Source: an uncultured bacterium
GTDB taxonomy: Bacteria; Verrucomicrobiota; Kiritimatiellia; CAIKKV01; CAITUY01
DNA: 64,000 bases
Direction of reading: 5' to 3'
NCBI GenBank assembly: GCA_903908715.1
Contig: CAIVSY010000115.1
Span: 35 to 64,034 of the forward strand
The translations under genes and the position numbers were made by a program. Below the pieces are notes generated by a model. The model did no database searches. It was not told the origin of the DNA and saw only the letters and a list, made by a program, of their open reading frames with translations. Shown piece after piece: positions 3,214 through 25,058 of this stretch. Numbering within the stretch: position 1 is the stretch's first letter; every line of letters starts with the position of its first letter.

Positions 3214-4458
3214 ATGAGCATGAGCAGACGCAGAGTGGTAGTCACCGGTTTAGGGGTTGTTTCGCCTCTCGGATGCGATATCAACGTTTTCTGGCAGCGA
3301 CTTTGCGCGGGCACATCGGGGATCGGCAGGATCACCCGGTTTGATGCGTCGGCCATGGCTACGCAGATCGCGGCTGAAGTCAAGGAATTCGAAATCGACA
3401 AGTTTATTCCCAAGAAGGAACAGCGGCGCATGGACCCGTTCTGCCACTATGCGGTGGCTGCGGGCAAGCTGGCCATGCAGGATTCCGGGATCCAGATGAG
3501 CGCCGAGAATCCCGAGCGCGTCGGATGTATGGTGGGCTCGGGTGTGGGCGGCTTGATTACAATGGAAGATCAGCATTCCGTGCTGATCCAGAAGGGCCCG
3601 GATCGCTGTTCTCCTTTCATGATTCCCCAGATGATCGTCAACATGGCGTCCGGGCTGATTGCCATCGAACACGGGATGAAGGGACCGAATTACTGCGTGG
3701 TTTCGGCCTGCGCGAGCGGTGCCCATTCGATTGGCGAGGCGATCCGCCAGATCCAGTACGGGGAGGCGGATGTGATGGTGGCGGGCGGGACCGAAGCGGT
3801 GGTATGCCCCCTCGGCATCGCGGGCTTCTCGGCCATGCGGGCGATGAGTACCCGTAATGACGACCCCGCACGCGCAAGCCGTCCGTTTGACAAGGATCGG
3901 GATGGTTTTGTCATGGGTGAAGGCGCGGGGATCATTGTCATGGAGGAATATGATCGCGCGGTCAAGCGCGGGGCCCGGATCTATTGTGAACTGGCCGGTT
4001 ATGGCGCGACCTGTGATGCCAATCACATCACGGCTCCGGCGCCGGGCGGCGAAGGCGCGGCCCGGGCCATGTCCAAGGCGATCCGTGATGCCGGCCTGAC
4101 CCCTGACGTCATCGACTACGTCAATGCCCACGGAACCAGCACGCCGTTGAACGACAAGAACGAGACGGCGGCCATCAAGGCGGCGTTGGGCGAGCAAGCC
4201 AGGAAGGTGATGGTCAGCTCGACCAAATCCATGACGGGACATCTTCTCGGGGCGGCGGGCGGCATTGAGACGGTCATTTGCGCCCTGGCGATCAGCAGGG
4301 GCGTGGTGCCGGGTACAATGAACTACACGACTCCGGACCCGGATTGCGATCTGGATTATATTCCGAACGCGGCACGGGAGGTTAAGATACGCGCGTGCCT
4401 GAACAATTCGCTGGGCTTTGGCGGGCATAACTGCTCGCTCCTGATCAAGGCGGTCTGA
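3214..4458 (+). CDS. fabF: 3-oxoacyl-ACP synthase II (FabF)
   Basis: 414 aa. Active-site region CVVSACASGAHSIGEA, and the HGTSTPLND and GHLLGAAG motifs of KAS I/II. Follows acpP. Confidence 0.9.
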   Translation: MSMSRRRVVVTGLGVVSPLGCDINVFWQRLCAGTSGIGRITRFDASAMATQIAAEVKEFEIDKFIPKKEQRRMDPFCHYAVAAGKLAMQDSGIQMSAENPERVGCMVGSGVGGLITMEDQHSVLIQKGPDRCSPFMIPQMIVNMASGLIAIEHGMKGPNYCVVSACASGAHSIGEAIRQIQYGEADVMVAGGTEAVVCPLGIAGFSAMRAMSTRNDDPARASRPFDKDRDGFVMGEGAGIIVMEEYDRAVKRGARIYCELAGYGATCDANHITAPAPGGEGAARAMSKAIRDAGLTPDVIDYVNAHGTSTPLNDKNETAAIKAALGEQARKVMVSSTKSMTGHLLGAAGGIETVICALAISRGVVPGTMNYTTPDPDCDLDYIPNAAREVKIRACLNNSLGFGGHNCSLLIKAV

Positions 4459-4490
4459 TTCGGGCAAATCGGTCGGGGATGCGACAGCAA

Positions 4491-4525
4491 GCGGCAGGGT
4501 CCTGTTGGACCGTGCCGCTTTTTTT
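4491..4525 (+). terminator. Rho-independent terminator after fabF (about 12-bp stem gcggcagggtcc/ggaccgtgccgc with one mismatch, TGTT loop, T7 run)
   Basis: Hairpin at 4491-4518 followed by ttttttt at 4519-4525. Confidence 0.7.
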
Positions 4526-4690
4526 ACCGGTATACTTGACCGATCCCCCCTTGTTTGGCAGTCTCGACCTTTCTATGAAGCTCTTTTCCGGGTGGCTGCC
4601 AGTGCTGGGGTATCCCTTTCGTTTCGTGGGCTACTGCGGCTGGGGTGATTCGGAAGAGGCCGTTGGTTTGAACACCCAAGGGGAATAACC

Positions 4691-7600
4691 ATGCAGTGTG
4701 TCGCAAGAAAGTCCGCATTCCTGTCACTTGTCCTGATCCTTGCCGCTTGTCTGCCGCTTGCGGTCGGGGCCGGCGCCAATGATGCCAAGGCGCTGGACGA
4801 CTATAACTTCGCGGTTTGGCTTTACAACAGCGGCAAGTATGCTTTGGCGGCGGAGTCGTATGCCGCATTTCTCCGGAACTATCCGGATCATGATCGCAAG
4901 TTTGAAGCGCATTTCGGTCTGGCTCAGTCGTGGTTCCATGCGGATGCATTTGAGAAGGCGGCGGGTGAATATGAAAAGGTGCGGACGGGCAAGCCGGATT
5001 TTACGCAGTCCGCCGAAGTCTGGTTCCAGCTTGGGCAGAGCTATGTGGCTCTCGGCCGGTTCCAGGAGGCCCTGGATCTGTTTGCGCAAATGCGCGAGAA
5101 ATACGCAGGGCACTACCTGGCTGACTGGGCGCTGGCCCGTCAGGCGGCTTGCCAGGTCAGCCTGGAGAAATACCCGGAGGCCGAAGCCCTGCTGAAGCCG
5201 TTTGTGGAGAAGTATCCCGACCCGAAAGCGGCGGAGACCAAGGCCATGCTCCGGAAACTCGAGGAGGCCGGAATCAAGGCGGGGGATGCCTTCCTGGGCC
5301 TGATGGAAAGAAGCGCTTTCCATCTGGCTTTTGCGCAGTTCAACCAGAACCGGTTTGGGGATGCGCAGAAGTCCTTTGAGCGATTCCTGGACAAGTATCC
5401 ACGCAGTGATCTGGCGGAAGAGGCGGGGTTCCGTCTGGCGCAGGCCCTCTACCGGCAGGGTGCCTATGCCAAGGCGGCAGCCGGCTACGAGGCGGTGGCC
5501 GCAGGCAGCGGAGCGTTTGCGGAGCCTGCCGCCTATGAACGCGGACTGGCCTTCTACAAGGCGGGGAACCTGAAGGAAGCCTCGGCGGCTTTCGGGCAGA
5601 TGGCAGAGCGCTTTCCGCAGAGTGCGCAATCCGGAAAGGCTCGTCTATATGCCGGAACAGCCCTGTTCGAGGCGGGAGATTTCGCGGCAGCCATCGCGCT
5701 TCTGGGGCCCTTGGCGAAGGAAGCGAAGGAGCCTTCCGGCGAGGCGGCCTACTGGGTTGCCATGAGTTTACTCAGGCTGAACAAGGCCGAGGAGGCGGAA
5801 GCAGCTTTTCAGGCGGCTCTGCGTGATTTTCCGAAATCCGGTGTGGCGGGTGACATGCGTCTGGGCCTGGCGGATGCCTGCCTGGCGCGGGACAAGTTTC
5901 AGGAGGCCGCCGCGGCGTTCCAGGCGTATGCCGCGGACTACCCCGAGAGCGAGCCGGCGGCCCGCGCCCTGTATTCCGCGTGTGCCGCCCTGCACCGGGC
6001 GGACAAGTTTACCGAGTCCGAAACCGCTTGCCGGCGTTTTCTCGACAAGTACAAGGGGCATGAACTGCTGCCCCAGGTTCTTTTCCTCAGCGGGGAGAAC
6101 CGGTTCCTCCTGAAGCAATACTCTGAAGCGGCGGAGCGATACGAGGCTTTCCTTGCCCTGGCTGGACAGGCGGCGGACCGGGTGGCCCGCACCCAATACC
6201 GGATGGCATGGGTACATCACTACGCCAAGAAGAACCTGGAGGCGTTGAATCGCCTCCAGAAGGTTGACCGCAAGGCGGCCGGGGCCGCGATCGCAGCGGA
6301 ATCGGAGTATCTGGCGGGGATTTGCCGATTCGGAATGGAGCAGTATGATGAGGCCGTACAGTCCCTGCGCGCCTACCTTGATTCGCCTGACCACGGGCGG
6401 TTCGGCGATGATGCCCTGCTGAAGATTGCCCTGGCGTTCATGCGGCTCAACCGGAAGGTCGATGCGGCGAAGCATCTGGAGCGCTTTCTCCGCGAATATC
6501 CGAAGAGTGAGCTTCTGCCGCAGGTCCAGTACCAGATAGCCGAGTGCTATTACGACCAGAAGGCGTACGAAAAGGCCGCGGAGGCCTACTCGCGGTTGAC
6601 CGGGTTGGCGGAGACCAACACGCTGGTTCCCTATGCCCTGTTCGGGATCGGGATGTGCCATCTTGAACGGGAGCAGTGGGCTGCAGCGGTCGCCGCGTTT
6701 GAACAGGTTGTCCGCCAGTATCCGCAATCCGAGGTGGCTGCCCAGTCGTATTATCGCAAGGCTTGGAGCCTGATCCAACTCCGGAAGTGGGTGGAAGCCG
6801 AGGAGGCCGCGATGAAAGTCCGCACATTGTTCCCCCGGCATGAGCTTGCGCGGGCCGCCCTGATGGCGGCCGGCACTTGCCGTCAGGAACAGAAAAAATG
6901 GGAGGAAGCCGCGGCGGCCTTCAAGGCTGTGGCGGAAGAGTATCCCGCAGCGGAGGATCTGGCGCGGGTGCTGTATGAGCAGGCGTGGTCCTGGAGGCAG
7001 GCCGGCAAGGATGAACAGGCCCTTCAGTCGTTCCGTGTCCTCGCGGAAAAATGTCCCGCGGACCCGCTGGCAGCCGATGCCTGCTTCTATCTTGGGGAGG
7101 CCCGCTACAAGATCGCGCTGGAAGCGGCGGCGGCGGAAAAGCCGGAAGGACGAAATCGCCGGCTTCGCGATGCCCTGGAACTGTATGGCAAGGCGTTGGC
7201 GGTTACCAAGGATCAGCGCCTGGGCGACAAGGTTCTCTTCCGCATGGGGTGGAGCCACTGGCTGATGGACGAGTATGGCAAGGCGGCGGAAATGTTTGAC
7301 CGGATGACCCGGGAATTTCCGGACAGCGAACTCCATCTGGATGCCTTGTTGCAGGCGGGTCAGGCGTACGCCAAGGAAGGGCGCACCGAGGAGGCTGTCG
7401 AACGGTTCCGCCGGTTCAGCACGGACAAGCGGGCGGCGTCCCACGAACTCCTGCCGGATGCCTGCCTGGGTCTGGCCAACTGCCTGATCATCCTCGACCG
7501 GCATGCGGAGGCGGTGGAGCCGCTGGAGACGGTTCTCAAGAGCAGCCAGGAAGACCCCGTGCTGATCCAGGCGAACTTCCTGCTGGGGAAAGCCCGCTTC

Positions 7601-7930
7601 AACTTGCGGAAATATGATGCGGCGGAAGCCTGTTTCCAGGAGGTTACCCGGCGGACCAAATCGGAAACGGGGGCGGAGGCGCAGTTCTTCATCGGACAGG
7701 TTGCGCAGGCGAAGAATGACTTCCGGGCCGCCATCCTGGCGTACCTGAGGGTGATTGCCCTGTATGGCGCCTATCCCGAATGGGTCGCGGGAGCGCTGTT
7801 CGAGACCGGCAAGTGCCAGGAGGCGCTGGGCGAAAAGGCCGAGGCCGGAAAGTCGTACGACGAGATACTTCGGAACTTCAAGGGGACGAAGTGGGCCAAA
7901 CCTGCGGCGGAACGGCGTGGAAAAATATGA
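4691..7930 (+). CDS. Very large TPR-repeat lipoprotein (CpoB/YbgF-like TPR architecture, 1079 aa); first gene of the ExbB-ExbD-giant protein cluster
   Basis: Signal peptide with lipobox ILAAC. Dozens of 34-aa TPR-like units (for example AEVWFQLGQSYVALGRFQEALDLFAQM). RBS AAGGGGAA upstream. Confidence 0.7.
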   Translation: MQCVARKSAFLSLVLILAACLPLAVGAGANDAKALDDYNFAVWLYNSGKYALAAESYAAFLRNYPDHDRKFEAHFGLAQSWFHADAFEKAAGEYEKVRTGKPDFTQSAEVWFQLGQSYVALGRFQEALDLFAQMREKYAGHYLADWALARQAACQVSLEKYPEAEALLKPFVEKYPDPKAAETKAMLRKLEEAGIKAGDAFLGLMERSAFHLAFAQFNQNRFGDAQKSFERFLDKYPRSDLAEEAGFRLAQALYRQGAYAKAAAGYEAVAAGSGAFAEPAAYERGLAFYKAGNLKEASAAFGQMAERFPQSAQSGKARLYAGTALFEAGDFAAAIALLGPLAKEAKEPSGEAAYWVAMSLLRLNKAEEAEAAFQAALRDFPKSGVAGDMRLGLADACLARDKFQEAAAAFQAYAADYPESEPAARALYSACAALHRADKFTESETACRRFLDKYKGHELLPQVLFLSGENRFLLKQYSEAAERYEAFLALAGQAADRVARTQYRMAWVHHYAKKNLEALNRLQKVDRKAAGAAIAAESEYLAGICRFGMEQYDEAVQSLRAYLDSPDHGRFGDDALLKIALAFMRLNRKVDAAKHLERFLREYPKSELLPQVQYQIAECYYDQKAYEKAAEAYSRLTGLAETNTLVPYALFGIGMCHLEREQWAAAVAAFEQVVRQYPQSEVAAQSYYRKAWSLIQLRKWVEAEEAAMKVRTLFPRHELARAALMAAGTCRQEQKKWEEAAAAFKAVAEEYPAAEDLARVLYEQAWSWRQAGKDEQALQSFRVLAEKCPADPLAADACFYLGEARYKIALEAAAAEKPEGRNRRLRDALELYGKALAVTKDQRLGDKVLFRMGWSHWLMDEYGKAAEMFDRMTREFPDSELHLDALLQAGQAYAKEGRTEEAVERFRRFSTDKRAASHELLPDACLGLANCLIILDRHAEAVEPLETVLKSSQEDPVLIQANFLLGKARFNLRKYDAAEACFQEVTRRTKSETGAEAQFFIGQVAQAKNDFRAAILAYLRVIALYGAYPEWVAGALFETGKCQEALGEKAEAGKSYDEILRNFKGTKWAKPAAERRGKI

Positions 7931-7982
7931 GACCGTACTCTGCATCCGGATCCTGTAACGAGATTAAGGGAAGGGCAAAGGA

Positions 7983-8789
7983 ATGAGTAAACTCTGTGTG
8001 ATGGTGTTGTGTATCTTGGGAATTCTGATCCCGGTTCTGGCGGAGGGACAGGCGGTTGTTCCTTCTGTTGCACCGGAACGAGGGCATTCGCAACAGGCTG
8101 GGGCTGTTGCCGGGTCTACGGCTGCGGAACGGGATCAGCCGGTTCTGCCGGGCGGCGGTTTGACTCTGATTCAACTTCTGCAAAAAGGCGGCGTGGTGAT
8201 GTATCCCCTTTATCTCTGCAGCATCCTTGTTCTTGGTTTTGCGGTGGAGCGGCTCCTGACCCTGCGGCGCCGGAACGTGGCACCCGAGGGACTTCTCGGG
8301 GAATTGAGATCGATCCTGGATCGGCCGGAACGGACTGTGGACGCTGGCCAGGTGATGGCCCTGTGTGAAGGCCAGCGCAACCCGCTGGCCCGGATCGTAT
8401 CCGCAGGAGCGCGCCGGGCGAACCGGACCATTCTGGAGGTGGAAAAGGCCATGGAGGACACCTCCGCCCGGGAAGTGGTCCGGCTCCAGCGCAATAACCG
8501 GGTTTTCTCGGGCGTTGCCAGTGTGGCGCCGCTTCTTGGATTGCTGGGAACCGCCACTGGGATCATCCGTGCGTTCATGACTGTGGCGGCCATGCAGGAT
8601 GCCTTGGGAAAGAGCGAGTTGCTCGCGGGAGGTATCTACGAAGCCCTGGTCTCGACCGCCGCCGGGCTCAGCATCGCCATTGTCGCCCTCGTGCTCTACC
8701 TGTTCTTTCAGGAGCGGGTGGAGAAGCTGGTGTCGGAAATGGATGATGCCGCAACCGAATTGTCAGAACGGTTGGCGGTCAGGACCTGA
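7983..8789 (+). CDS. MotA/TolQ/ExbB-family proton-channel stator protein with N-terminal signal-like extension
   Basis: 268 aa with three transmembrane helices. The conserved C-terminal region LLGLLGTATGIIRAFMTVAA...GGIYEALVSTAAGLSIAIVALVLY matches ExbB/TolQ. Confidence 0.8.
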   Translation: MSKLCVMVLCILGILIPVLAEGQAVVPSVAPERGHSQQAGAVAGSTAAERDQPVLPGGGLTLIQLLQKGGVVMYPLYLCSILVLGFAVERLLTLRRRNVAPEGLLGELRSILDRPERTVDAGQVMALCEGQRNPLARIVSAGARRANRTILEVEKAMEDTSAREVVRLQRNNRVFSGVASVAPLLGLLGTATGIIRAFMTVAAMQDALGKSELLAGGIYEALVSTAAGLSIAIVALVLYLFFQERVEKLVSEMDDAATELSERLAVRT

Positions 8790-8801
8790 GGGAAACGTTC
8801 C

Positions 8802-9215
8802 ATGAGAACCAAGACCCTTGCCCACGATTTTTATGGCATCAACGTGATCCCGATGATCGACACGATGATGTTCCTGCTTGTCTTTTTCCTGATGGCCACG
8901 AAATTCGCGGATATTGAACGGGATGTCCAGGTCAAGCCGCCGGACAGTCATAATGCCCGGCCCGTGATGGCCATACCTCGCGAGTTGATCATCAATGTGG
9001 GGCAGGATGGACGGCTTTCGATTGCCGGCCAGCCGCGGCAGCCCGCGGATGTCGAGCGGCTGATTGCCCAGGCCAGGGAGGGCAATCCCGACCAGGCGGT
9101 GATTATCCGGGGGGATCGGCGTGCAGTCCTGCAACATGCCGTGGACGTGCTGGATCTCTGCGAGAAGCACGGGGTCAGGCATACCTTCCTCACGACCCGG
9201 CAGGAGGACCTGTAA
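8802..9215 (+). CDS. ExbD/TolR-family biopolymer transport protein
   Basis: 137 aa. N-terminal INVIPMIDTMMFLLVFFLMAT transmembrane segment, and periplasmic domain ending in DQAVIIRGDRRAVLQHAVDVLDLC. Immediately follows ExbB. Confidence 0.8.
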   Translation: MRTKTLAHDFYGINVIPMIDTMMFLLVFFLMATKFADIERDVQVKPPDSHNARPVMAIPRELIINVGQDGRLSIAGQPRQPADVERLIAQAREGNPDQAVIIRGDRRAVLQHAVDVLDLCEKHGVRHTFLTTRQEDL

Positions 9216-9245
9216 GGCGTCCGGCGGAATACTCGAGGGAATGCA

Positions 9246-12200
9246 TTGAACGATCATTCGCGAGCAGTGAGGCATCGTCTGTGGCTCTGGTTCCCGTTCG
9301 CCGTGGGACTCATGGCGGCCGTGGCGGTCAGCCTGCTGGCGCCTGTCAGCTGGACCGGATACTGGCGTTATCTCACGCTGCGTTTCGGCTGGCAGATCGT
9401 GGCGGCTATCCTGACGGCGGCAGTTCTGCTTCTGTTTTCCATGCTGGTGGCCGGACGGCGGAAGGAATCGGGGTTCCTTGCGCTGGGGATGTTCATCAGC
9501 ATTCTGATTCACATGATGATGGCTTCCATGTTTGGCGGCTATATCCTCCAGGACGGGGCGGCCCCCAGTGACGGCGATGAAAACGCGTTGGCCGTTTCCT
9601 CCGGTGTACCGCAATGGACCGAGAGTCAGCTGAGCGAGGAGGTCCGGAGCGAGTTCACCGCGGTAACGCCGCCCGATTTGCGCGAGATGGATGCCGGGCG
9701 GAATGATCAGGCGGGTTCTGCCGCAGGCGGGTTCCGTCGCTTCCGCGCGAATCCGGAGGCCCTGCAGTCCCATGACCCGGATCCCGGTGAACGGGTGCAG
9801 GCCGTAATGGCCTCCGCGGGCAAGGCGAAAATTGAGGATCGTCTGGCTGCCTCCGGGGAGCGGCAGGCGGAGGTCGAGCGGGCGGTGGTGGTGAAACTGA
9901 AGCAGGGCTCATTACCGTCCGGAGCCCGGCCGACTCAAGAGGTTCCGCGTGAGTTGCCGGATGCGGAGCCGTTACGCGGGGAGGACAGGATTCCTTCCCT
10001 GGACCGGGAGCGGCCCCAGGTGGCCGGAGGGATGGATGTGCAAAGGGCGCCAGTCCGCACAGAGGCATCCGTGGATGGCAGCCGGCGGATGATACAGCGT
10101 GAGGACGAAATCCTCCGTGCGGTTCCCGGAAGACAAACGATCGAAGCCCTGGATGTGCGCGCGGAGGCGATGACTGCGGAATGGAAGGAAGCGCAGCGGA
10201 GCGGACGTGCCGCGCCTGCGTTGGAGGCCGCCTACCAGAAGGGCGAAGGGCCCGATGTGTCCGCGCCGGAGCGGGCGGTTGGCGAATTCAATCCGGATGT
10301 TTCCGCTGTGTCTGTCGCCCGCCTGGCGGATCAGGCTCCGGCATCGGGCGAGCGCCGTGTTTCTCTCGAAGGGGCTGCCGCGAAAGTGCGCGAGATCCGT
10401 GCAAGGAGCGGGGATCCGGCGGTTGTGCTGGAGGTTGCCTTGCAGCCGTTGGCCCGCGAATCGGGCCCGTCTGTTCCTGTGGCGGAAAAAACTTCCGCCG
10501 TGGCGCGCGACGTCGGGCCCGGTCGGGCCGGGCAGGGAATGGGAATGGTGGCGGGCCCCGCAGGATCCGTTCGTGCCCAGGTGTCCTTGCAGGGGAGGGC
10601 GGCCGGGGAAAGGAAACTCACAGGAACCTCTTCTTTATCCGGCACCACCTCTGCCAGGGAATGGGCCGGGGTCGAAGATCGTTTACAGGCCGCGGGTCGC
10701 CGCACAACTCAAGGCGCAATGACGGCGGTTGGTGGCCGTGCCGAGGCGGTTGCATCCGTTGCCGGTCAGGGCATGGACGGGATATCTGGCGTCTCCGCCC
10801 GTCCTATTGCGGATGTCAAAGTCGACAAGCGCGGAATGGCCCCGGAAGGGATCGATTCCGGTTCAGGACGGGTTATGGCTGGAGGCGCATCGATGGAATG
10901 GGCGCTTGGGAATGCGGGCATCGGCGAGGAGACAGGGAGTGATGCCGGACTGGATATTGCTTCCGTTCAGGCCGTGTTTGCCCCGGTTCCGGAGGACCGC
11001 CAGGGCGAAGCCGGAATGCCGGCGGGGCGTGGGAGTTCGAAGGGATTAACGGGATTCGGGAGCGTGATGTCGGCGGATGCGCCAGTTCGGGTTTCGGATC
11101 GGGCGACAACAGGAACTGTTCAGTCAGCCAGTGCCGGGGCCTGGCAGGAATGGGGTACGGGGGAAGAAAAGGCTGGCGGAAGTTTCGGAAGCCATGAGGC
11201 GGGGAGCGCCTTTGCGCGGCAGGATGTTGAAGGCGCCTTCCTGGGAGTAACGGATCCGGGCGGATCCCTTGCGGGTGGATTCGAGCGGAGCGAGGTCAAG
11301 GGTCTTGCGGGAGGCCGGATGTTTGTCGAGGAGGCTGTCGCGGGCTCGGCGGTCAGCGTGGTGACGCGCGAAAAGGCAGGACACGGCACTGCGGCGCTGG
11401 CGGGCTCTATGCGGGGGATCACGTCCACGGATTCAGGCGCTGCCGAGGCGGGACGTGTGGGGGCAACCGGTGCAAGAGAGGCTGTGCCGATGTCGGTTGG
11501 CAAGGCTGCTTCGGGTTTCCCGGGTTCAGCGGATCACGGCAAGCCGGGTGGTGGCGGGAAAGGGGCGACCGAAATGCCGGTTACTGGAACGACGGATAGA
11601 CGGGGCGTCAGTCTTGCGGATGGGACCGGGGTGGCGATTCCGCATCGTGCGGTGCGGGGTGATGGGGTGGTGCCTGAAGGGGCTCTCGATGGGAGGACAT
11701 TCGGATTGCACGGCCAGGATCAGGGAACAGCATTTGGCACGGTGACGAAGAGTGAGGCGGCGGCTGGGGGAGCCTTGGCTGGAACGGGAAATTCCGGGTC
11801 CCGTACCGTGAGGGCTCCGGGCGATTTTCGGGTCGACAAGGCGGGCGGCGGCATGGGCGGCGCAGGGAGTTCCCCGCGACCCGACTGGCGCGATGTGGGG
11901 TCGGCCGGCCTTTCGCTCGCGGGCGGTAAGTCACACGGGCGGTTGGATGGGGGGGGTGCCGCAAGCGGGGTGGCGGACCGGATCGCGGCATCCGGCCGGG
12001 GTTCAGGAGGCGCGGGCACAGCCAGGGTGCTCATCACGGATGAGCTTTCCTCGGTCCCCGCGAAAGTGATCCAGAAGGCGATATACACCCTGCGTGCGCC
12101 GGAACGCCGCAAGGAGATTGCGCGTGAATTCGGCGGGTCGGAAAAGACCGAGCAGGCTGTGGAATCGGCGCTGGTATGGCTCGCGCAGTCGCAGAGCGAG

Positions 12201-13121
12201 GACGGGCGCTGGGATGTGGATGGTTTCAGGACCTTATCGCGATGCGGCGGACCTGGGGACCGGGCTGATGAAGATGTGGCCCTGACGGGACTGTGCCTGC
12301 TTTCGTATCTTGGCGCCGGGTACACGCACGTCAAAGGGGAGCACAAGGAAACTGTTCGCAAGGCCCTCAACTGGTTGATCGACGGGCAGAAGCCGGACGG
12401 AGACCTGCAGCGGGACGGCCAGATGTACGGGCAGGCGATGGCCACGGCCGCGCTGTGCGAATCCTACTCCATGACGGGCGACAAACGGTTGCTCGGGCCG
12501 ATTGAGAGGGCGGTGGCGTTCATTGCGCGGGCGCAGAATCCGGGTGCCGGCTGGCGATACGAGCCGCGGAAGGATTCGGATACATCCGTGACCGGGTGGC
12601 AGGTCCTGGCATTGAAGAGCGCGATGATTGCCGGCGTCCGGATTGATCCGGAGCATTTCCAGTGGGTTGAGGAATGGTTGGATGCGGTGCGGCGCGGCAG
12701 GGAAGGCGGACTTTATGCCTACATGCCCGGCCAGGGGGCCACGCCCACCATGACAGCGGAAGGCTGGTTCTGCCAGTTGATGATGCAGGAGAAGACCCGC
12801 ATGCGGGGGCAGGGGGAAACCATTCCGTATCTCATGGAACATCTGCCGGAGTGGTCCTCCCAGGAGAACGGTGTGAATCTGTATTTCTGGTACTACAGCA
12901 CGCTGGCCCTGTATATGTCCGGTGCGCCGGAATTCTCGGTGTGGAACAAGGCGCTGGTGGAGGCCCTGTTATCCGGGCAGGTCCAGCGGGGACCCGCCAA
13001 AGGCAGTTGGGATCCGGTGTGCGTGCTGGGCGCCCGAGGGGGCCGGATCTACATGACAGCCACGGCAGCGCTTTGCCTCGAGGTGTACTATCGCTATCTG
13101 CCCTTCTATAAGCAGAGGTAG
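9246..13121 (+). CDS. Giant membrane-anchored protein (1291 aa). Architecture: 3 N-terminal transmembrane helices, about 750 aa of Gly/Ala/Ser/Glu/Arg-rich low-complexity linker, then a C-terminal prenyltransferase/squalene-cyclase-like alpha/alpha-toroid repeat domain. TTG start.
   Basis: Uninterrupted 3.9-kb ORF in frame with clear transmembrane segments. C-terminal QW-type motifs LVWLAQSQSEDGRW, NWLIDGQKPDGDL and FIARAQNPGAGW. Directly downstream of ExbB/ExbD. Confidence 0.7.
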   Translation: MNDHSRAVRHRLWLWFPFAVGLMAAVAVSLLAPVSWTGYWRYLTLRFGWQIVAAILTAAVLLLFSMLVAGRRKESGFLALGMFISILIHMMMASMFGGYILQDGAAPSDGDENALAVSSGVPQWTESQLSEEVRSEFTAVTPPDLREMDAGRNDQAGSAAGGFRRFRANPEALQSHDPDPGERVQAVMASAGKAKIEDRLAASGERQAEVERAVVVKLKQGSLPSGARPTQEVPRELPDAEPLRGEDRIPSLDRERPQVAGGMDVQRAPVRTEASVDGSRRMIQREDEILRAVPGRQTIEALDVRAEAMTAEWKEAQRSGRAAPALEAAYQKGEGPDVSAPERAVGEFNPDVSAVSVARLADQAPASGERRVSLEGAAAKVREIRARSGDPAVVLEVALQPLARESGPSVPVAEKTSAVARDVGPGRAGQGMGMVAGPAGSVRAQVSLQGRAAGERKLTGTSSLSGTTSAREWAGVEDRLQAAGRRTTQGAMTAVGGRAEAVASVAGQGMDGISGVSARPIADVKVDKRGMAPEGIDSGSGRVMAGGASMEWALGNAGIGEETGSDAGLDIASVQAVFAPVPEDRQGEAGMPAGRGSSKGLTGFGSVMSADAPVRVSDRATTGTVQSASAGAWQEWGTGEEKAGGSFGSHEAGSAFARQDVEGAFLGVTDPGGSLAGGFERSEVKGLAGGRMFVEEAVAGSAVSVVTREKAGHGTAALAGSMRGITSTDSGAAEAGRVGATGAREAVPMSVGKAASGFPGSADHGKPGGGGKGATEMPVTGTTDRRGVSLADGTGVAIPHRAVRGDGVVPEGALDGRTFGLHGQDQGTAFGTVTKSEAAAGGALAGTGNSGSRTVRAPGDFRVDKAGGGMGGAGSSPRPDWRDVGSAGLSLAGGKSHGRLDGGGAASGVADRIAASGRGSGGAGTARVLITDELSSVPAKVIQKAIYTLRAPERRKEIAREFGGSEKTEQAVESALVWLAQSQSEDGRWDVDGFRTLSRCGGPGDRADEDVALTGLCLLSYLGAGYTHVKGEHKETVRKALNWLIDGQKPDGDLQRDGQMYGQAMATAALCESYSMTGDKRLLGPIERAVAFIARAQNPGAGWRYEPRKDSDTSVTGWQVLALKSAMIAGVRIDPEHFQWVEEWLDAVRRGREGGLYAYMPGQGATPTMTAEGWFCQLMMQEKTRMRGQGETIPYLMEHLPEWSSQENGVNLYFWYYSTLALYMSGAPEFSVWNKALVEALLSGQVQRGPAKGSWDPVCVLGARGGRIYMTATAALCLEVYYRYLPFYKQR

Positions 13122-13273
13122 ATGGTGTGGGATCTTGTCGGCGGGTGCGAAATGACGGTATGTCTGGTCACTCCCGTATGATCTTTCATTGATCCACTGG
13201 GGGGCGATAATCTACACTGACCTGCAATCATTTTGCTGCATTCTCGTCCGGCAGGAAGGACACACAATCGGAT

Positions 13274-14494
13274 ATGACCTGTTCACAGAAAGACAAGGAT
13301 CGCATTCGGGCTCTCGCGGAAAAGGTTGCGGCAATGGCCAGGGAACCCAGAATGGCCGCCATCAAGAAGCGTTGGGCGGATGTCAATGCCCTGCGCAAGC
13401 CCGACCGGGCACCGGTCTGGTGCAGGCCGGTGGGATGCTGGAAGGAGATCATTACAGACGATAGGCTCGAGTGCACGGATCCGTCATTGCGGCCGCTTGA
13501 GTATCGGTTCCTGCAGACGATTCACAAGAGGGATATCGACGATGATGAGCCCGTCGAGGATTATCTGGATATCGGGGCGGTTTTCAAGGTGGACCCCGAG
13601 AATGTCTGGGGCGTCACGGTCGGCCGGCACACCACCAGCGAGAAAGGCGGCGCGTGGGGGTATGACCCGCCGCTGAAGACGGTGGACGACCTGAGCAAGC
13701 TGCGGATCCCCGCGTTCGTCTATTGCAAAGACGAGACGCAGGCGCTCAAGACCCGTCTGGAGGATCTGCTGGGCGACATCCTGCCGGTGAAAGTGACGGT
13801 GGGTCCGCTTCTCGGTGCGACGCTGGGAATGGCCGCGGCGGACTTGCGCGGGCTGGAGCAGATGATGATGGACATGATTGCCGAACCCGAGCGGATGCAC
13901 CGTTTAATGGCTTATTTGCGCGACTCGACACTGGCTTCGATGGACTATATCGAAAGTACCGGGTTGATCACGCCGGGCAACAGCGGTCCCATGACCTGCA
14001 GTGATCCCATCGGCGAAACCGGAGTGAATGCGCGCCTGACCTGCAGAAATCTCTGGTGCATGGCGAATTCGCAGGAATTCGACCAGGTCTCGCCCGCCAT
14101 GTGGGAGGAATTCTGTCTGAACTACCAGAGGCCGATCTTCGCGAGATTCGGGCTTGTTGGATACGGGTGTTGTGAGAACCTGACCCACAAGATCGACGGG
14201 GTGCTATCGATCCCCAACCTGCGGATCTTTGTCTGCAGTGCGTGGACGGATCTGGACACCGTCCTGGAAAAAGCAGGCCGGGGCTACTGTATCATGTGGC
14301 GCCAGAAGGCCAGCGATGTGGTCTTCCCCGACTCTGCCACCCAGATCAAGGAGGACTTGATGAAAGGCGCCCGGAAGCTTCAGGGATACCGCTACCAGAT
14401 TGTACTCCGGGAGCTGGAGACCCTTGCCGGGCACCCGAACCGCTTGCACGAATGGACTCGCTACGCCAAGGAGGCGGCCGCCCAATACTCGTAA
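13274..14494 (+). CDS. Uroporphyrinogen decarboxylase (URO-D)-family protein, paralog 1 (MtaA/CmuA-like fold; substrate unknown)
   Basis: 406 aa. Global resemblance to the URO-D/methylcobamide:CoM methyltransferase family, and a similar domain layout to the downstream neighbour. Confidence 0.6.
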   Translation: MTCSQKDKDRIRALAEKVAAMAREPRMAAIKKRWADVNALRKPDRAPVWCRPVGCWKEIITDDRLECTDPSLRPLEYRFLQTIHKRDIDDDEPVEDYLDIGAVFKVDPENVWGVTVGRHTTSEKGGAWGYDPPLKTVDDLSKLRIPAFVYCKDETQALKTRLEDLLGDILPVKVTVGPLLGATLGMAAADLRGLEQMMMDMIAEPERMHRLMAYLRDSTLASMDYIESTGLITPGNSGPMTCSDPIGETGVNARLTCRNLWCMANSQEFDQVSPAMWEEFCLNYQRPIFARFGLVGYGCCENLTHKIDGVLSIPNLRIFVCSAWTDLDTVLEKAGRGYCIMWRQKASDVVFPDSATQIKEDLMKGARKLQGYRYQIVLRELETLAGHPNRLHEWTRYAKEAAAQYS

Positions 14495-14558
14495 AGCCGT
14501 GGTCCGCATGCCGCACAGGTTTCTGTGCGCTAACTTTATGTGGGAATCAGGAAACTGC

Positions 14559-15608
14559 ATGACTCAACGTGAGAATATTCTCAAGGCGATCCGGTTTGAA
14601 AAGCCCGACTTTATCCCCATGTCCTTCCAAATCAGTGCGGCATCCTGGAATCATTATGATCCGCAGGCGCTGCAGGACCTGATGGAAGCGCATCGTCTCC
14701 TCTTTCCGGATTTCATTCGTCAGGCAACCGTTACCCCGTATTACGGTCTCAATCAGCGCAAGGATGAGCCTTATACCGACGCATGGGGATGCGTGTGGTC
14801 CACCAGCGAGGATGGGATTACAGGGTCGGTCCATGGACATCCGTTGTCCTCCTGGGATTCGTTTTCCAGCTACACGCCGCCCGATCCGGAAAAGACGGAT
14901 GGAACCTATCCGGTCGACTGGCAGGGTCTTGGGTCCCATGTTCGTCAACAGAAGGTGGCGGGGCAGCTGGTCTGCGGCGGGCTTCCTCACGGGCATACGT
15001 TTCTCCGCCTCCAGGATATTCGCGGATACGAAAATCTGATCCTCGACATGATGGATGAAAGGCCTGAATTGTGGAAACTCGTCAGCATGGTCGAGGAATT
15101 CAACCACCACTTCGTGCTCAAGTGGCTGGAACTGGAGCCGGACATGATGAGTTATCCGGAGGACCTGGGCATGCAGGTCGGTCCCATGCTCAGCCCGGAA
15201 AGCTTCCGCAGGTTCATCCGGCCGGTTTATGAGAAACTGATGAAGCCAGCCCGTGAACGCGGCTGCATTGTCCATATGCATTCCGACGGTGACATCCGCA
15301 CGCTGGTCGATGACCTCATCGGAGGGGGTGTGGAGGTCATCAACCTGCAGGACCTTGTCAATGGGATCGATTGGATTGAAAAGAAGTTTGCGGGGCGCAC
15401 CTGCATTGACCTGGATATTGACCGGCAGGCCATCACGGCGCGGGGCACGCCTCAACAGATCGACCGTCTGATCCGCGAGGAAGTCACGAGGCTGGGGAGC
15501 CGGGAGGGCGGCCTGATGATGGTCTACGGGTTGTATCCGGGCGTGCCTCTGGAGAACGTGGAAGCTCTCATGGACGCCATGGAGAAGTACGCAGGGCATT
15601 TTGCCTGA
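14559..15608 (+). CDS. Uroporphyrinogen decarboxylase (URO-D)-family protein, paralog 2
   Basis: About 350 aa from the internal ATG (MTQRENILKAIRFEKPDFIPM). The upstream part of the annotated ORF overlaps the previous gene. URO-D family features. Confidence 0.6.
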   Translation: MTQRENILKAIRFEKPDFIPMSFQISAASWNHYDPQALQDLMEAHRLLFPDFIRQATVTPYYGLNQRKDEPYTDAWGCVWSTSEDGITGSVHGHPLSSWDSFSSYTPPDPEKTDGTYPVDWQGLGSHVRQQKVAGQLVCGGLPHGHTFLRLQDIRGYENLILDMMDERPELWKLVSMVEEFNHHFVLKWLELEPDMMSYPEDLGMQVGPMLSPESFRRFIRPVYEKLMKPARERGCIVHMHSDGDIRTLVDDLIGGGVEVINLQDLVNGIDWIEKKFAGRTCIDLDIDRQAITARGTPQQIDRLIREEVTRLGSREGGLMMVYGLYPGVPLENVEALMDAMEKYAGHFA

Positions 15609-19873: not shown

Positions 19874-21178
19874 TTATGTTCCGAGGATAGCCAGGATGAT
19901 CCCGGCCGCCACAACCGAACCCACCTGGCCGGCCACATTCGCCCCGAGCGCGTGCATCAGTAGGAAGTTGTGCGGATCGGCTTCCAATCCGAGCTTGTTC
20001 GAGACTCGCGCCGCCATCGGGAACGCCGAGACGCCCGCCGAACCGATCAGCGGGTTCACCGGATTCCGGGGTGAAACCCAGTTCATGACCTTCGCGAAAA
20101 GCACCCCGCCCGCCGTGCCCAGCGAGAAGGCAAGCAGCCCGAGCAACAGGATGCCGAGCGTGTCAAGCCGGACAAACTTGTCGCCTGACATCTGCATTCC
20201 CACTCCCAACCCCAGGAAGACCGTGGCGATATTCATCAGTTCGTTCTGCAAGGTCCTGGATATGCGTTCGATCACTCCGCTTTCCTTGATGAAATTCCCG
20301 AACGCGAAACAGCCCATCAGCGGCAGGGCCGAGGGCAGCAGCAGGGCGCACAACGCCAGCACCAGCAACGGGAAGAGGGCTCTTTCGAGCTTGCTGACCG
20401 GGCGCACCTGCTTCATGACGATCCGGCGCTCCGCCTTTGTGGTCAGGAGTTTCATGATGGGCGGCTGAATCAGCGGCACGAGGGCCATGTAGGAGTATGC
20501 GGCCACGGCAATGGACCCCAGAAGATGCGGGGCAAACCGGGCTGACACATAGATCGAGGTTGGCCCGTCGGCTCCCCCGATGATCGCGATCGAACAGGCT
20601 TCCTTAAGACTGAAGTCGAACCAGGGCAGGGCATTCAGGGCCACGACGCCCATAAGCGTGCCGAACACGCCGAACTGCGCCGCCGCCCCCAGGATTGCCA
20701 CACGCGGGCTGGCCAGCAGCGGACCGAAGTCGGACAGCGCCCCGATCCCCATGAAAACGATCAGGGGCAACAGCTCGTTCTCAATGCCATGCCGGAAGAT
20801 GAGGCCGAGCAGTCCGTGCTCCGATCCCATTCCGGCGAAAGGTACGTTTACGAAAATCGTGCCGAAGCCGATCGGGACCAGCAACAGAGGCTCGAAGTCC
20901 TTGACGACTCCGAGGTATAACAATACCCCGCCGGCGATGATCATCAGCAACGCCTTCCAGCCACCCGCCAGGAGGAACCCGTAGAGCCCCGTGCTTTTCG
21001 ATACGCTCGCCAGTCCCTTGACGAACGAGACGGTTTCCCCCGCCGCCCCGGCGGCCACTGGCGTACCCGCTTCAGGACCGGCGGCGAAGGCCGTCTGCAA
21101 AGCTCCGAGTCCGCCCAGCAGCAACAGGCCCGCGGCCATGCATAACACCGTTTTCCGCAATGTCAGCTTTGTATTCAT
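19874..21178 (-). CDS. oadB: Na+-translocating decarboxylase beta subunit (OadB family)
   Basis: 434 aa polytopic membrane protein. Conserved OadB/GcdB/MmdB regions ([22 protein letters not shown]). Confidence 0.85.
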
Positions 21179-21185
21179 GCCGTCA

Positions 21186-22976
21186 TCACCCTACGATTGC
21201 CAGGACTTGATCGGCCTTCACGGCAGTTCCAGCCTGCACCTTGAAGGTGACTGTGCCGGCCGCCCGACATTTGACCTCGAGTTGCATCTTCATGGCCTCC
21301 ATGACCAGCAACGTCGCCCCCGCTTGCACACGTTCCCCTTCTTCGCAGGTCAGGCGCAAAACGTCCCCGGGCATGGGGGCCAGAACCTTTTCGGAGGCTG
21401 CCGAAGCCGCCGTTGCCGTCGGTGCGGAAGGGGTGGATTCGCCGGCAGCCGGCTCAACGGCCACCTCGTAAGCCAGGCCATCGACCTCGAGGACGGCTGT
21501 GCCGCCTTCCTTGCCGGCCTTGCGGGCCACGGAATAGGTCTTCCCGTTGACGGCAACCTTGAAGCGACCGCTCCCCCCTGCGGCTGCGGGTTTTGCGGCC
21601 GGCTCAGGCGCCTCGAACGTGACAGGGCCCTTGTGGCGGCGCCCGAAAAACTGCAACGCCACCTGCGGGAACATGGCGTAGGTCAACACATCCTCCACCG
21701 GCACATGTGCGGCCTGGAGCTTGTGTTTCAATTCATCCTCGATCCTGCCCAGCTCGTTGGGGATCTCGTCCGCGGGCCGCCGGGTTACCGGCGCGTCCAG
21801 TTTCAGTTCAACCAGAGCCTGCCGGACCAGCTTTGGATCCGGCTCCGCGGGAGTGCGCCCGTAGCGGCCGGCGAGCAGGTCGCGCGACTCGGCCGTGAGG
21901 CGGGAATACCGCCCGAACAGTACGTTGAACAACGCCTGGGTCCCGACGATCTGCGAAGTGGGCGTGACCAGAGGAGGGTATCCGAAATCCCGCTGCACGA
22001 CTGCGACCTCGTCGAGTACGGCGTCGAGCTTGTCTTCGGCTTTCTGCTCGCGCAACTGGTTCTCCAGGTTGGAGAGCATTCCTCCAGGCACCTGCGCCGT
22101 CAGGATGCGGGTATCGGCTCCGAGAAACGAGGACTCGAACTGGCGGTATTTCCTGCGCACGGTCCGGAAACAGGCGGCCAGTTCGGCCAGCACTTTGAGG
22201 TCCAATCCCGTGTCATATTCCGTGCCGCACAGGATCTCGACCATCGTCTCGGTCGGCGAGTGGCTGGTGCCCATGGCAAGCGAGGAGATGGCTGTATCGA
22301 TGCGGTCGGCACCCGCCTCGATTCCCTTAAGAAGTGTGCCGACAGACATCCCCGTGGTGGCGTGCGTATGCAACTGGACCGGGAGGCCAACAATCTTCTT
22401 GAGGGTTGTCACCAGAGTGAAGGCGTCGTATGGCTTGAGCAGGCCGGCCATATCCTTGATGCACAATGAATCGGCGCCCATGGCTTTGAACTCCGCCGCC
22501 AGCCCCACATAGGCGTCCAGTGTATGCACGGGACTGGTGGCATAGCTGATTGTCGCCTGTGCGTGCTTGCCGGCCTTTTTCACCGCCCGGATCGAGGTCT
22601 CCAGGTTACGGGGGTCGTTCAGTGCGTCGAAAATGCGGAAAACATCCACGCCATGCCGGGCGGCGCAGGCGACAAATGCCTCCACCACGTCGTCGGCGTA
22701 ATGACGGTAACCCAGCAGGTTCTGGCCGCGCAGGAGCATCTGTTGCGGTGTGTTGGGCATGACTGCCTTGAGCTGCTGCAAACGGTCCCATGGATCCTCG
22801 TTCAGGAAACGGATGCAGGTGTCATACGTGGCGCCGCCCCAGGTCTCGACCGACCAGAAACCGGCCTGATCCATCCGGCTGCCCACCGGGATCATGTCCG
22901 CCGTCAGCATGCGTGTGGCAAACAAGGACTGATGAGCATCCCGCAGTGCCACATCTGTGATTCCCACTTTTCCCAT
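21186..22976 (-). CDS. oadA: Oxaloacetate (or related) decarboxylase alpha subunit: carboxyltransferase 5S domain plus C-terminal biotinyl domain
   Basis: 596 aa. N-terminal [11 protein letters not shown] carboxyltransferase region (the MGKVGIT stretch is only the start). C-terminal biotinylation motif EAMKMQ. Confidence 0.85.
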
Positions 22977-24495: not shown

Positions 24496-25032
24496 TTACT
24501 TCACCACGACGAACTCGACGCGGCGGTTCACACTCCAGGCCGCTTCGTCATGTCCCTGATCCTTGGGCTGCTCTTCGCCAAGGCTCTTAGTCTGGACACG
24601 GGCGCCATCGATGCCGAGGCTCATGAGGTAGGCGCGCACGGACAGGGCGCGGCGCTCGCCGAGCGACATATTGTACTCGTTGCTTCCGCGCTCATCGCAA
24701 TGGCCTTCGAGGGTCACCATGCTGGAGGCGTTGCCCTTCAGGAATTCGGCTACGGCTTCGACCTTGGCGCGTTCAGTGTCGTCCACCTGGGCGCTGTCGT
24801 AGGCGAAGCGGACGGATTCAAACTGGCCGGCAACCAGGCTCTTGTCGTCGAATGCGCCGCGATCGGGCAGGGTGCTGCCTTCACCCAGGAGGCCGGGTCC
24901 GCTAACCATGTCGGACGGGGGCAGGCCGGAGGTTGAGCTCTTCTTGCCGAACCAACGCTTGCAGCCGGTAGATGCGACCGCCATTGCACAAACCAGGATT
25001 GCCACGCAGATTGTACGAATATTCATCTTCAT
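24496..25032 (-). CDS. pal: Peptidoglycan-associated lipoprotein Pal (OmpA-like domain)
   Basis: Lipobox AVASTGC. C-terminal LEGHCDERGSNEYNMSLGERRALSVRAYL...NRRVEF is an OmpA_C domain. Last gene of the tol-pal operon. Confidence 0.85.
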   Translation of the reverse strand: MKMNIRTICVAILVCAMAVASTGCKRWFGKKSSTSGLPPSDMVSGPGLLGEGSTLPDRGAFDDKSLVAGQFESVRFAYDSAQVDDTERAKVEAVAEFLKGNASSMVTLEGHCDERGSNEYNMSLGERRALSVRAYLMSLGIDGARVQTKSLGEEQPKDQGHDEAAWSVNRRVEFVVVK

Positions 25033-25058
25033 TCCGCCTTGTTATTAAAAGATCTTTG

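Follow-up and report, generated by a model that had tools for sequence, protein, structure and literature searches.

What does a proton-driven stator act on when neither a TonB nor a TolA gene lies beside it? The question is raised by a locus in a 64,000-nucleotide stretch of DNA (here called the window) from an uncultured bacterium of the Kiritimatiellia, in which four open reading frames on the plus strand encode a TPR protein, an ExbB-like protein, an ExbD-like protein and a protein of 1291 amino acids, in that order (Table 1). The genes are separated by 52, 12 and 30 nucleotides, in agreement with a preliminary description of four co-directional, tightly spaced genes at these coordinates, and public gene calls yield an identical 1291-aa product. 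The cassette is flanked by fabF upstream and by genes for URO-D-like methyltransferases downstream. With Pfam, none of the four proteins proved to contain a TonB_C or TolA domain. The cassette has no TonB or TolA gene as a neighbor in the window, nor is such a neighbor conserved at the loci in other genomes, in keeping with the preliminary description. In our view, the four genes are likely to encode a single machine of the cell envelope, a force transducer driven by the proton motive force and equipped with a new head domain.

Table 1. Features of the four-gene cassette, given as positions in the window.
Feature	Position	Strand	Remarks
TPR protein, 1079 aa	4691..7930	+	First cassette gene; N-terminal signal sequence; about 12 TPR units of the CpoB/YbgF type
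ExbB/TolQ-family proton-channel subunit, 268 aa	7983..8789	+	N-terminal signal-like segment; extension of about 45 aa ahead of TM1
ExbD/TolR-family subunit, 137 aa	8802..9215	+	Membrane-helix Asp D20 in PMIDTMMFLL
Putative force transducer, 1291 aa	9246..13121	+	Three N-terminal membrane helices, long linker, C-terminal toroid
S-x3-H motif (S85-I-L-I-H89)	9498..9512	+	Third membrane helix; counterpart of TonB S16/H20 and TolA SHLS
Candidate motor-box strand E112-NALAVSSGVP-122	9579..9611	+	About 25 residues past the membrane helix; sequence pattern only
Low-complexity linker, about 820-830 residues	9612..12077	+	G 16%, A 16%, S 9%, R 9%, P 5%
C-terminal (alpha/alpha)6 toroid, aa 945-1291	12078..13121	+	QW-like repeats; terminates in near-invariant LEVYYRYLP

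The motor subunits are clear members of their families. The ExbB-like protein matched the Pfam family MotA_ExbB (1.6e-28, 99.4 bits, cut-off 22.9) and carries the GLLGT and E..ST motifs (Thr/Glu) in TM2 and TM3, and the ExbD-like protein matched the family ExbD (5.6e-22, 78.6 bits, cut-off 25.4). The channel Asp is kept in all 23 cassette ExbD sequences that have a membrane helix inside the examined N-terminal stretch, out of 25 open reading frames examined. The two proteins would combine in the inner membrane into a Ton/Tol-type stator that conducts protons. The ExbB-like protein scores below the equivalog cut-offs for both TolQ (80 bits versus 221) and ExbB (57 versus 206), and its N-terminal extension is kept in the orthologs. 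It is 36-50% identical to the cassette ExbB proteins of other phyla, compared to 35% over 85 amino acids only to TolQ of the same genome; for the ExbD-like protein, the identity is 28-55% to the ExbD proteins of cassettes elsewhere and 22% to TolR of the same genome. Across phyla, the cassette ExbB and ExbD proteins match each other with E-values of 1e-30 to 1e-63. Cassette motors of different phyla are orthologs of one another and are separate from TolQR of the same genome, to which they are only remotely related.

A separate tolQ-tolR-tolA-tolB-pal cluster is located on the minus strand at positions 24496-28326, 11.4 kb from the cassette. The top NCBIfam matches of its genes are tolQ, tolR, tolA/tonB_Cterm, tolB and Pal, with most scores under the equivalog cut-offs. 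Gene order and top matches agree with the earlier identification of a canonical Tol-Pal operon on the other strand, and the system described here is additional to Tol-Pal in the source organism and not its housekeeping version, as also proposed earlier.

The 1291-aa protein is the putative transducer of this motor. An S-x3-H motif within a hydrophobic helix was identified in 66 of the 78 full-length open reading frames of the family at a hydrophobicity threshold of 1.0; in four more (L030, L042, L077 and L082) the motif is present with a hydrophobicity just under this threshold, giving a range of 66-70. The search admitted any of S, A, G, T and C at the fourth residue before the His; 64 of the 66 motifs start with S and two with A. 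In terms of the full SHLS motif (S-x3-H-x6-L-x3-S), which has a role in motor binding (PMC12204202), the first Ser and the His are kept, the Leu position is just generally hydrophobic and the final Ser is not conserved. A short segment with alternating hydrophobic residues, 35-45 residues past the Ser, is kept within each subfamily, whereas the rest of the linker diverges. An example is the segment ELITVTLISPDDE in the family member L031, which we compared with the segment PISVTMVTPADLE in TonB of E. coli. We envisage that the S-x3-H helix would dock onto the outside of the stator, like TonB and TolA, that the short strand would probably also touch the periplasmic domain of ExbD, and that the flow of protons would be converted into pulling or rotation of the 1291-aa protein.

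Neither Pfam domains nor, as judged from a self-BLAST search, repeats were identified in the linker of the window protein, and 70-80% of its residues are disorder-promoting. The shortest linkers in the family have about 100 residues and the longest about 1075. The linker in the window protein is rich in Gly and Ala, unlike a polyproline or helical rod, and its length of about 830 residues far exceeds what is needed to cross the periplasm. In the proposed machine, it would span the periplasm and allow the toroid to reach a ligand at the peptidoglycan or the outer membrane; no partner of either kind was found to be encoded within the cassette.

The proposal required that the gene order be conserved in related genomes, and this is the case. 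In a sample of 80 species-representative genomes with the toroid domain, the conserved neighbors were ExbD (55 loci), ExbB (47 loci) and a TPR gene of about 1050 codons (39 loci), all of them upstream and on the same strand; no further gene cluster was common to more than 11 loci. ExbD is located directly upstream in 51 of the 66 full-length members with the S-x3-H motif (at least 600 nucleotides of upstream sequence required), and many of the ExbD-toroid junctions overlap by 4 nucleotides. Among the 57 loci for which 5 kb or more of upstream sequence was available, 30 have all three genes. The genes flanking the cassette vary between genomes, and the unit of TPR, ExbB, ExbD and toroid genes is a self-contained cassette in the Planctomycetota, the Victivallales and the Sumerlaeia. 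About 15 members with the S-x3-H motif have no adjacent ExbD, including the entire subfamily with the LPAWLxS motif, and ExbD is wholly missing from the cassettes of the Isosphaerales. None of the four paralogs without the S-x3-H motif and with intact upstream DNA (L005, L036, L037 and L047) has an adjoining motor.

The TPR protein matched many TPR families in Pfam (TPR_6, 4e-76; TPR_16, 1e-55) and the NCBIfam model TIGR02795 (tol_pal_ybgF) with 356 bits over 12 stretches. The repeats are of the type named in the preliminary description, which had found the protein reminiscent of an enormously expanded CpoB/YbgF, but its score against the CpoB equivalog NF008068 is 121 bits, far under the cut-off of 383. 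CpoB/YbgF is a protein of about 260 amino acids in which a coiled coil at the N-terminus precedes a single TPR domain at the C-terminus, whereas the cassette protein is four times as long. The preliminary description had also called it a lipoprotein. This part we could not support: the window protein has L-A-A-C at residues 17-20, but the hydrophobic stretch runs on to an A-G-A site, and the lipobox Cys is missing from the nearest ortholog (L006) and most others. The protein is more likely to be secreted to the periplasm, where it would serve as a CpoB-like adaptor or scaffold.

A stator, a transducer with an S-x3-H helix and a TPR protein of the CpoB/YbgF type are all found in the Tol-Pal system, and TolB-type PD40 repeats are fused into the transducer in the Phycisphaerae versions. 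Unlike Tol-Pal, the cassette contains neither Pal nor TolA domain III, and its motor proteins are remote from TolQ and TolR in the same window. Because of the CpoB-type TPR protein and the fused PD40 repeats, our guess is that the output of the machine could be Tol-like, that is, maintenance of the envelope. Similarities to the Ton system include the ExbB/ExbD stator with its channel Asp, the S-x3-H helix at the N-terminus, the short candidate strand motif, the extended linker and the adjacency of the genes; like a TonB or TolA transducer, the 1291-aa protein is encoded next to its motor, here 30 nucleotides from ExbD. However, Pfam and NCBIfam gave no TonB_C, TonB_2 or TolA match to this protein, whose C-terminal domain is all-helical and has neither the TonB_C nor the TolA domain III fold. 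The cassette also differs from Ton in that SHLS is not conserved at its Leu and second Ser, proline is not enriched in the linker, the motor proteins fall under the ExbB/ExbD equivalog cut-offs and no TonB-dependent receptor is associated with it.

We also considered the possibility that the toroid protein replaces TonB and opens a channel or receptor in the outer membrane for the uptake of nutrients or polymers. Coupling to the motor would be the same as in the force transducer that we favor, and the output alone would differ. We regard such an importer as unlikely: genes for outer-membrane barrels are not among the conserved neighbors of the cassette, its accessory proteins resemble those of Tol, and TonB works with a small alpha/beta domain that engages its partner by beta-strand addition, an element that is lacking in the 350-aa toroid.

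The sole Pfam match of the 1291-aa protein is SQHop_cyclase_C with 21.0 bits, under the cut-off of 26.1, and the scores are far from the curated cyclase thresholds of TIGR01787 (26 bits versus 323) and TIGR01507 (22 versus 431). The family profile, however, matched squalene-hopene cyclase at 8e-18, orthologs clear the SQHop_cyclase_C cut-off with 29-33 bits, and the closest structural matches are class II cyclases. The domain is a terpene-cyclase-type alpha/alpha toroid with QW repeats, a fold that we assign with confidence; the earlier toroid call stands for the family, whereas the window protein on its own falls short of the Pfam threshold. Its identity to class II terpene cyclases (squalene-hopene cyclase, the single-domain SHC-like proteins 8paj/8pak, MstE and drimenyl-PP synthase) is 13-18%, and it differs from these in being single, periplasmic and long-tethered, with no conserved DxDD motif. 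At the position of DxDD, equated by pattern and not by superposition, the family columns read D (31 of 88), A/S, D (83 of 88) and T/V, and the window protein has D-E-D-V, which is neither DxDD nor DxDTT. Because the DxDD motif is lacking, the toroid is probably not a cyclase. Likewise, no Cys is invariant across the family that could complete the Asp, Cys and His ligands of a prenyltransferase zinc site. We suggest that the toroid would act as a binding head rather than as a terpene cyclase.

Databases label the family, which falls into about 9,600 clusters at the 50% identity level, as terpene cyclase/mutase or squalene-hopene cyclase. An alternative is that the 1291-aa protein is a membrane-anchored periplasmic enzyme, either an active terpene cyclase, a prenyltransferase or a glycan-modifier, with the adjacency to ExbBD reflecting co-regulation or motor-assisted positioning rather than the transmission of force. 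The structural matches are in line with these names, as are the many invariant aromatic residues and D1010, which occupies the cyclase-motif position and is found in 83 of 88 sequences and through which the toroid may have a non-canonical catalytic role. We nonetheless judge the enzyme explanation to be improbable. Apart from the missing DxDD and zinc-site residues, there is a single toroid and no beta-gamma didomain, the anchor helix bears a motor-binding motif, and the toroid is the tip of a disordered tether of 100-1000 residues in the periplasm, far from isoprenoid substrates embedded in the membrane. In line with a binding role, the domain also recurs in tandem copies, behind PD40 repeats, ahead of CarboxypepD_reg domains and as the extracytoplasmic portion of a Ser/Thr kinase, where it would serve as a sensor module.

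A force transducer with an unfamiliar head is no longer without precedent, since an analogous cassette was proposed in 2025 (Williams-Jones et al., Mol Biol Evol 2025, PMC12204202). In PVC bacteria, transducers with a vWA head and an SHLS helix sit behind TPR-tolQ-tolR genes; they were found starting from Tichowtungia aerotolerans in the Kiritimatiellota (PMC12204202). The gene order of TPR, tolQ-like, tolR-like and SHLS transducer is the same and the phyla overlap, but the vWA cassette has two heterologous tolR genes and a linker of about 100 residues, whereas the cassette described here has an (alpha/alpha)6 toroid head, one ExbD and, in the window protein, a linker of about 830 residues. 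The toroid-headed type is absent from that article and its supplements, and we found no published description of it. The preliminary description, which knew of no characterized system of this composition driven by the proton motive force, is qualified by the vWA-headed analog.

Gliding was suggested for the vWA cassette by its authors (PMC12204202), and the stator could by analogy with Agl-Glt or GldLM move an adhesin complex for surface motility or adhesion, with the TPR protein as a scaffold. The TPR protein indeed has weak matches to the motility and secretion TPR lipoproteins PorW/SprE and Tgl, but these are far under the cut-offs (113 bits versus 250 and 29 versus 225), the conserved neighbors include no adhesin, secretin or other Glt/Gld component, and the cassette is present across the sampled lineages of the Planctomycetota. 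We find a motility motor very unlikely. Finally, a Zorya-type anti-phage defense system, which likewise has a MotAB-like stator with a long tail, is effectively refuted, since apart from a weak match of ExbB to ZorA (5.7e-6, 23.6 bits; PADLOC) the other three proteins have no PADLOC match, nuclease or helicase partners (ZorC/D or ZorE) are lacking, and the order is conserved in many species representatives among housekeeping genes, unlike in defense islands.

Our findings indicate that the toroid-headed cassette is probably an undescribed class of force-transmission systems in the cell envelope, conserved in the Planctomycetes and their relatives. According to published surveys, Pal was not found in the Planctomycetota and TonB in just four of the genomes examined; the absence of pal is credited to Witwinowski et al. 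in the supplement to PMC12204202. The Planctomycetota may have the cassette as their main system of this kind. A bolder and more tentative hypothesis, which we consider possible though not the likelier outcome, is that it represents a third major class of proton-driven force transduction in the periplasm beside Ton and Tol, the principal one in the Planctomycetota, in which a toroid, pulled by the motor, captures a glycan or isoprenoid lipid of the envelope and thereby maintains the outer membrane or the peptidoglycan much like Tol-Pal. If so, thousands of PVC proteins now annotated as terpene or squalene-hopene cyclases would be mis-named force transducers.

Ton and Tol are the textbook routes by which the energy of the inner membrane is delivered to the outer envelope in Gram-negative bacteria. 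The four-gene cassette in the window appears to pair a proton motor of the 5:2 type with a putative force transducer of the SHLS type, the head domain of which is apparently undescribed, and our data support the interpretation of the module in the preliminary description. The four ORFs are located on the plus strand exactly where they had been placed (Table), with intergenic gaps of 52, 12 and 30 nt, and the same products result from the public gene calls for this contig. A cluster of tol and pal genes, in which tolA has a tonB_Cterm match above the cut-off, is present on the minus strand of the same window, and the module is therefore a system additional to the canonical Tol-Pal system, as had been claimed.

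Table. Coordinates of the cassette genes and of the tol-pal gene cluster in the window.
Feature	Position (nt)	Strand	Remarks
TPR protein	4691-7930	+	1079 aa; many TPR families in Pfam
ExbB-like protein	7983-8789	+	268 aa; Pfam MotA_ExbB, 99 bits
ExbD-like protein	8802-9215	+	137 aa; Pfam ExbD, 79 bits
Toroid-headed protein	9246-13121	+	1291 aa; SQHop_cyclase_C sub-threshold only
tolQ, tolR, tolA, tolB, pal cluster	24496-28326	-	gene order and best family matches

The ExbB-like and ExbD-like proteins scored far under the equivalog cut-offs of the Tol and Ton models alike (NCBIfam). Twelve TPR units of the CpoB/YbgF type were identified in the 1079-aa protein, which did not reach the CpoB equivalog (NCBIfam). 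This protein had been described as a lipoprotein, which was not borne out: Cys20 forms part of a hydrophobic signal that extends beyond it up to A-G-A, and the lipobox is absent from the nearest orthologue and most others, suggesting that it is probably no lipoprotein.

The cassette is flanked upstream by fabH-fabD-fabG-fabF and downstream by two URO-D/MtaA-like methyltransferase genes, none of which is related to the four cassette genes. The two URO-D-fold genes adjoin each other directly 3' of the cassette (13274-15608, plus strand) and are not kept beside it in other genomes; the second resembles the MtaA/CmuA methylcobamide methyltransferases with a score well below the cut-off. Their listed coordinates overlap by about 95 nt, and the start codon of one of the two has probably been misassigned. 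A scan of positions 4300-13500 for promoters and terminators gave counts no higher than in shuffled sequence and therefore does not delimit the operon.

The 1291-aa protein starts with three hydrophobic helices, the third of which (GFLALGMFISILIHMMMASMFGG) contains S85-x3-H89, with the same spacing as S16/H20 in TonB and the SHLS motif in TolA. Motifs of the SHLS type are the means by which TonB and TolA bind their motors (PMC12204202). In the toroid family, S/A-x3-H was identified within a hydrophobic helix just N-terminal of the linker in 66 of 78 full-length ORFs. Ser occupies the first position in 64 of them and Ala in the other 2; four further cases slightly below the hydrophobicity threshold would bring the total to 70 of 78. 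The consensus around the motif is RWGxxxPLxKCxxL-S-L-L-A-H-LLL; only the S and the H of SHLS are conserved across the family, and the L and the second S showed no conservation. These patterns suggest a TonB-like anchor throughout the toroid family. Paralogs of about 550 aa that lack S-x3-H have no adjoining motor genes.

A short alternating-hydrophobic segment, ENALAVSSGVP, follows about 25 residues past the S-x3-H helix in the 1291-aa protein. Across the family, a short strand-like segment located 35-45 residues past the Ser is kept within each subfamily, whereas the linker beyond it diverges. In the toroid protein of locus L031 this segment is ELITVTLISPDDE, which is similar to PISVTMVTPADLE of E. 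coli TonB. The strand-like segment is a candidate counterpart of the “motor box” in TonB and TolA (PMC12204202). The linker of the 1291-aa protein comprises about 820 residues, is rich in Gly, Ala, Ser, Arg and Glu, and consists to 70-80% of disorder-promoting residues, with no repeats and no Pfam domain. The GC content of the window rises from about 62% overall to 66.8% at positions 10001-12000, because the Gly/Ala/Arg-rich linker is encoded there; this rise is a compositional consequence and no sign of foreign DNA.

The family to which the protein belongs is very large. A word-indexed search with the toroid domain gave more than 2,100 close homologs, and an exhaustive profile search gave 9,599 clusters at 50% identity (E <= 1e-30). 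We surveyed the best 80 of at least 599 toroid matches in species-representative genomes, searching these loci with the ExbB, ExbD and TPR proteins of the window and clustering all ORFs all-against-all. The 80 loci come from Phycisphaerae, Planctomycetia, Pirellulales, Isosphaerales, anammox bacteria, Victivallales and Sumerlaeia, and the Victivallales are the nearest relatives among them (59-60% identity). ExbD was identified at 55 of these loci, starting at a median distance of 433 nt upstream of the toroid gene, ExbB at 47 (1357 nt upstream) and a TPR gene that encodes about 1050 aa at 39 (4522 nt upstream), all on the same strand as the toroid gene, whereas any other ORF cluster, antisense shadows aside, occurred at 11 loci at most. 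The order of ExbB and ExbD followed by a giant toroid protein is thus conserved at many of these 80 loci. Of the 66 full-length S-x3-H members whose upstream DNA spans at least 600 nt, 51 have ExbD as the immediate upstream neighbor, and a 4-nt overlap was observed at many ExbD-toroid gene junctions. Since the genes that flank the cassette are completely different from genome to genome, and ExbD, ExbB and TPR are the sole widely common neighbors, the cassette is a self-contained unit of four genes without TonB, TolA or an outer-membrane partner. Likewise, no TonB or TolA gene was found among the gene families common to many loci. Furthermore, ExbB and ExbD of the cassette have matches across phyla at E-values of 1e-30 to 1e-63, whereas TolQ and TolR of the same genome match them with only 46 and 27 bits, which indicates that the motor was inherited together with the toroid protein.

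Several variants of this arrangement were observed. Four Isosphaerales cassettes, at L041:4598-11179 (Singulisphaera sp. Ch08), L053, L077 and L082, contain TPR, ExbB and toroid genes but no ExbD, with 97 nt from ExbB to the toroid gene, and are comparable to the tolR-less vWA family (PMC12204202). All four toroid proteins retain S-x3-H, and the two N-termini that were read (L041 and L053) have an extra helix beginning R-A-D-[VA]-G-[VA]-W, the Asp of which might substitute for that of ExbD. The Phycisphaerae versions (L014:6950-11716, L010:7049-11725 and others) are 1400-1590 aa long. In these, the S-x3-H helix is preceded by an additional N-terminal membrane helix and by some 330 residues of PD40 repeats of the TolB type, a CarboxypepD_reg domain is located C-terminal of the toroid, and another conserved motif, Q[IV]RGxLT, is found directly past the motor-box-like strand. 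Yet another subfamily (L001, L034, L046, L050, L058, L067 and L075) has the anchor motif LP[AS]W[LI][IV]S-x3-H, linkers of about 100-130 aa and neither ExbB nor ExbD adjoining; in L001, a gene for a MoxR-type AAA ATPase is located upstream on the opposite strand. The homologous protein P0063 is a member of the orphan LPAWLxS subfamily.

The C-terminal domain (residues 945-1291), with the invariant residues E969, E1072, R1104, D1112 and W1118, a WYY motif and LEVYYRYLP at the C-terminus, had been called a toroid. The fold is correct, but the call holds only at the level of the family and the structure, since the window protein by itself has SQHop_cyclase_C as its sole Pfam match, at 21.0 bits and below the cut-off of 26.1. 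Databases name its homologs terpene cyclase/mutase, prenyltransferase/squalene oxidase repeat protein or squalene-hopene cyclase, and an enzymatic role is kept as a rival reading. The columns that resemble the DxDD motif of the cyclases are D (31/88), A/S, D (83/88) and T/V, as judged from the sequence pattern, and the family alignment has no conserved Cys for the zinc site of the prenyltransferases. With these columns degenerate and the zinc-site Cys missing, the domain is probably neither a canonical cyclase nor a canonical prenyltransferase. CGEQ is the thioester site in the TED domains of alpha-2-macroglobulin; a thioester site of this kind was rejected for the toroid, as the Cys that is conserved in part of the family at column 1000 lies outside any such motif.

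We favor the interpretation that the toroid would be a binding head, because the cyclase motif is missing, because the domain is located at the end of a periplasmic tether, and because it recurs as a module. It adjoins PD40 and CarboxypepD_reg domains in other proteins. Among the homologous proteins P0141 (2074 aa), P0137, P0132 and P0140, it occurs in tandem copies and also makes up the extracytoplasmic portion of a Ser/Thr protein kinase, together with a right-handed beta-helix and a CarboxypepD_reg domain, which suggests a general ligand-sensing module.

The best-supported reading is that ExbB and ExbD would form the stator, on which the 1291-aa protein would dock as a TonB/TolA-type transducer by means of its S-x3-H helix. 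The linker would then serve as a long flexible tether, the toroid head would bind some ligand in the periplasm or at the outer membrane, and the secreted CpoB-like TPR protein would be an adaptor. Given that the TPR protein is of the CpoB type and that fusions of the TolB type occur, we lean toward a Tol-like output in envelope maintenance. Import and motility are kept as rivals to this output, whereas a role in anti-phage defense is excluded by a PADLOC search.

Two other regions of the window deserve mention. A 788-aa ORF (50488-52854, minus strand) matches ELYS, a eukaryotic nuclear-pore assembly family, over the whole protein in Pfam (41.2 bits, cut-off 28.8, E 2e-10), with no individual stretch above the cut-off by itself. 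Such a match is odd for a bacterium and is reminiscent of the eukaryote-like membrane-coat proteins reported from PVC bacteria. The region 19874-22976 (minus strand) encodes the beta and alpha subunits of a Na+-translocating oxaloacetate decarboxylase and is adjoined by genes for alpha-acetolactate decarboxylase and biotin synthase, a gene content that fits a PVC bacterium with an anaerobic, fermentative metabolism.

Among the systems described so far, the nearest is that of the vWA-headed transducers, which were reported in 2025 for Tichowtungia (Kiritimatiellota) and further PVC bacteria (PMC12204202). It follows the same logic, but the toroid cassette differs in its single ExbD, its far longer linker and its head. 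A cyclase-like or toroid head is not mentioned in that article or its supplements, nor is a toroid-headed transducer in two recent reviews of 5:2 motors. Likewise, a literature search of incomplete coverage gave no paper that ties squalene cyclase, prenyltransferase or toroid annotations to ExbB, ExbD, TolQ or a force transducer.

Our findings suggest that the anchor-plus-linker module of TonB and TolA is a portable chassis, with three kinds of heads so far: TonB_C, vWA and the toroid. The cassette should be of interest to envelope biologists as a very large and conserved family, an interest tempered by the vWA precedent. Naming toroid proteins as terpene cyclase/mutase or squalene-hopene cyclase probably represents a widespread mis-annotation, and conclusions drawn from environmental genomes about the biosynthesis of hopanoids and sterols could be skewed by it. 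TonB and its receptors were found in only four of the analyzed Planctomycetes genomes (PMC3422733), and pal is absent from the phylum according to Witwinowski et al., as cited in the supplement of PMC12204202; among the Planctomycetota, the principal system of this type may therefore be the cassette. With a motor, a transducer that bears the motor-binding motif, a head domain of a new kind and a partner resembling CpoB, it represents a concrete, conserved and testable candidate for the delivery of energy to the envelope in the Planctomycetes and their relatives.
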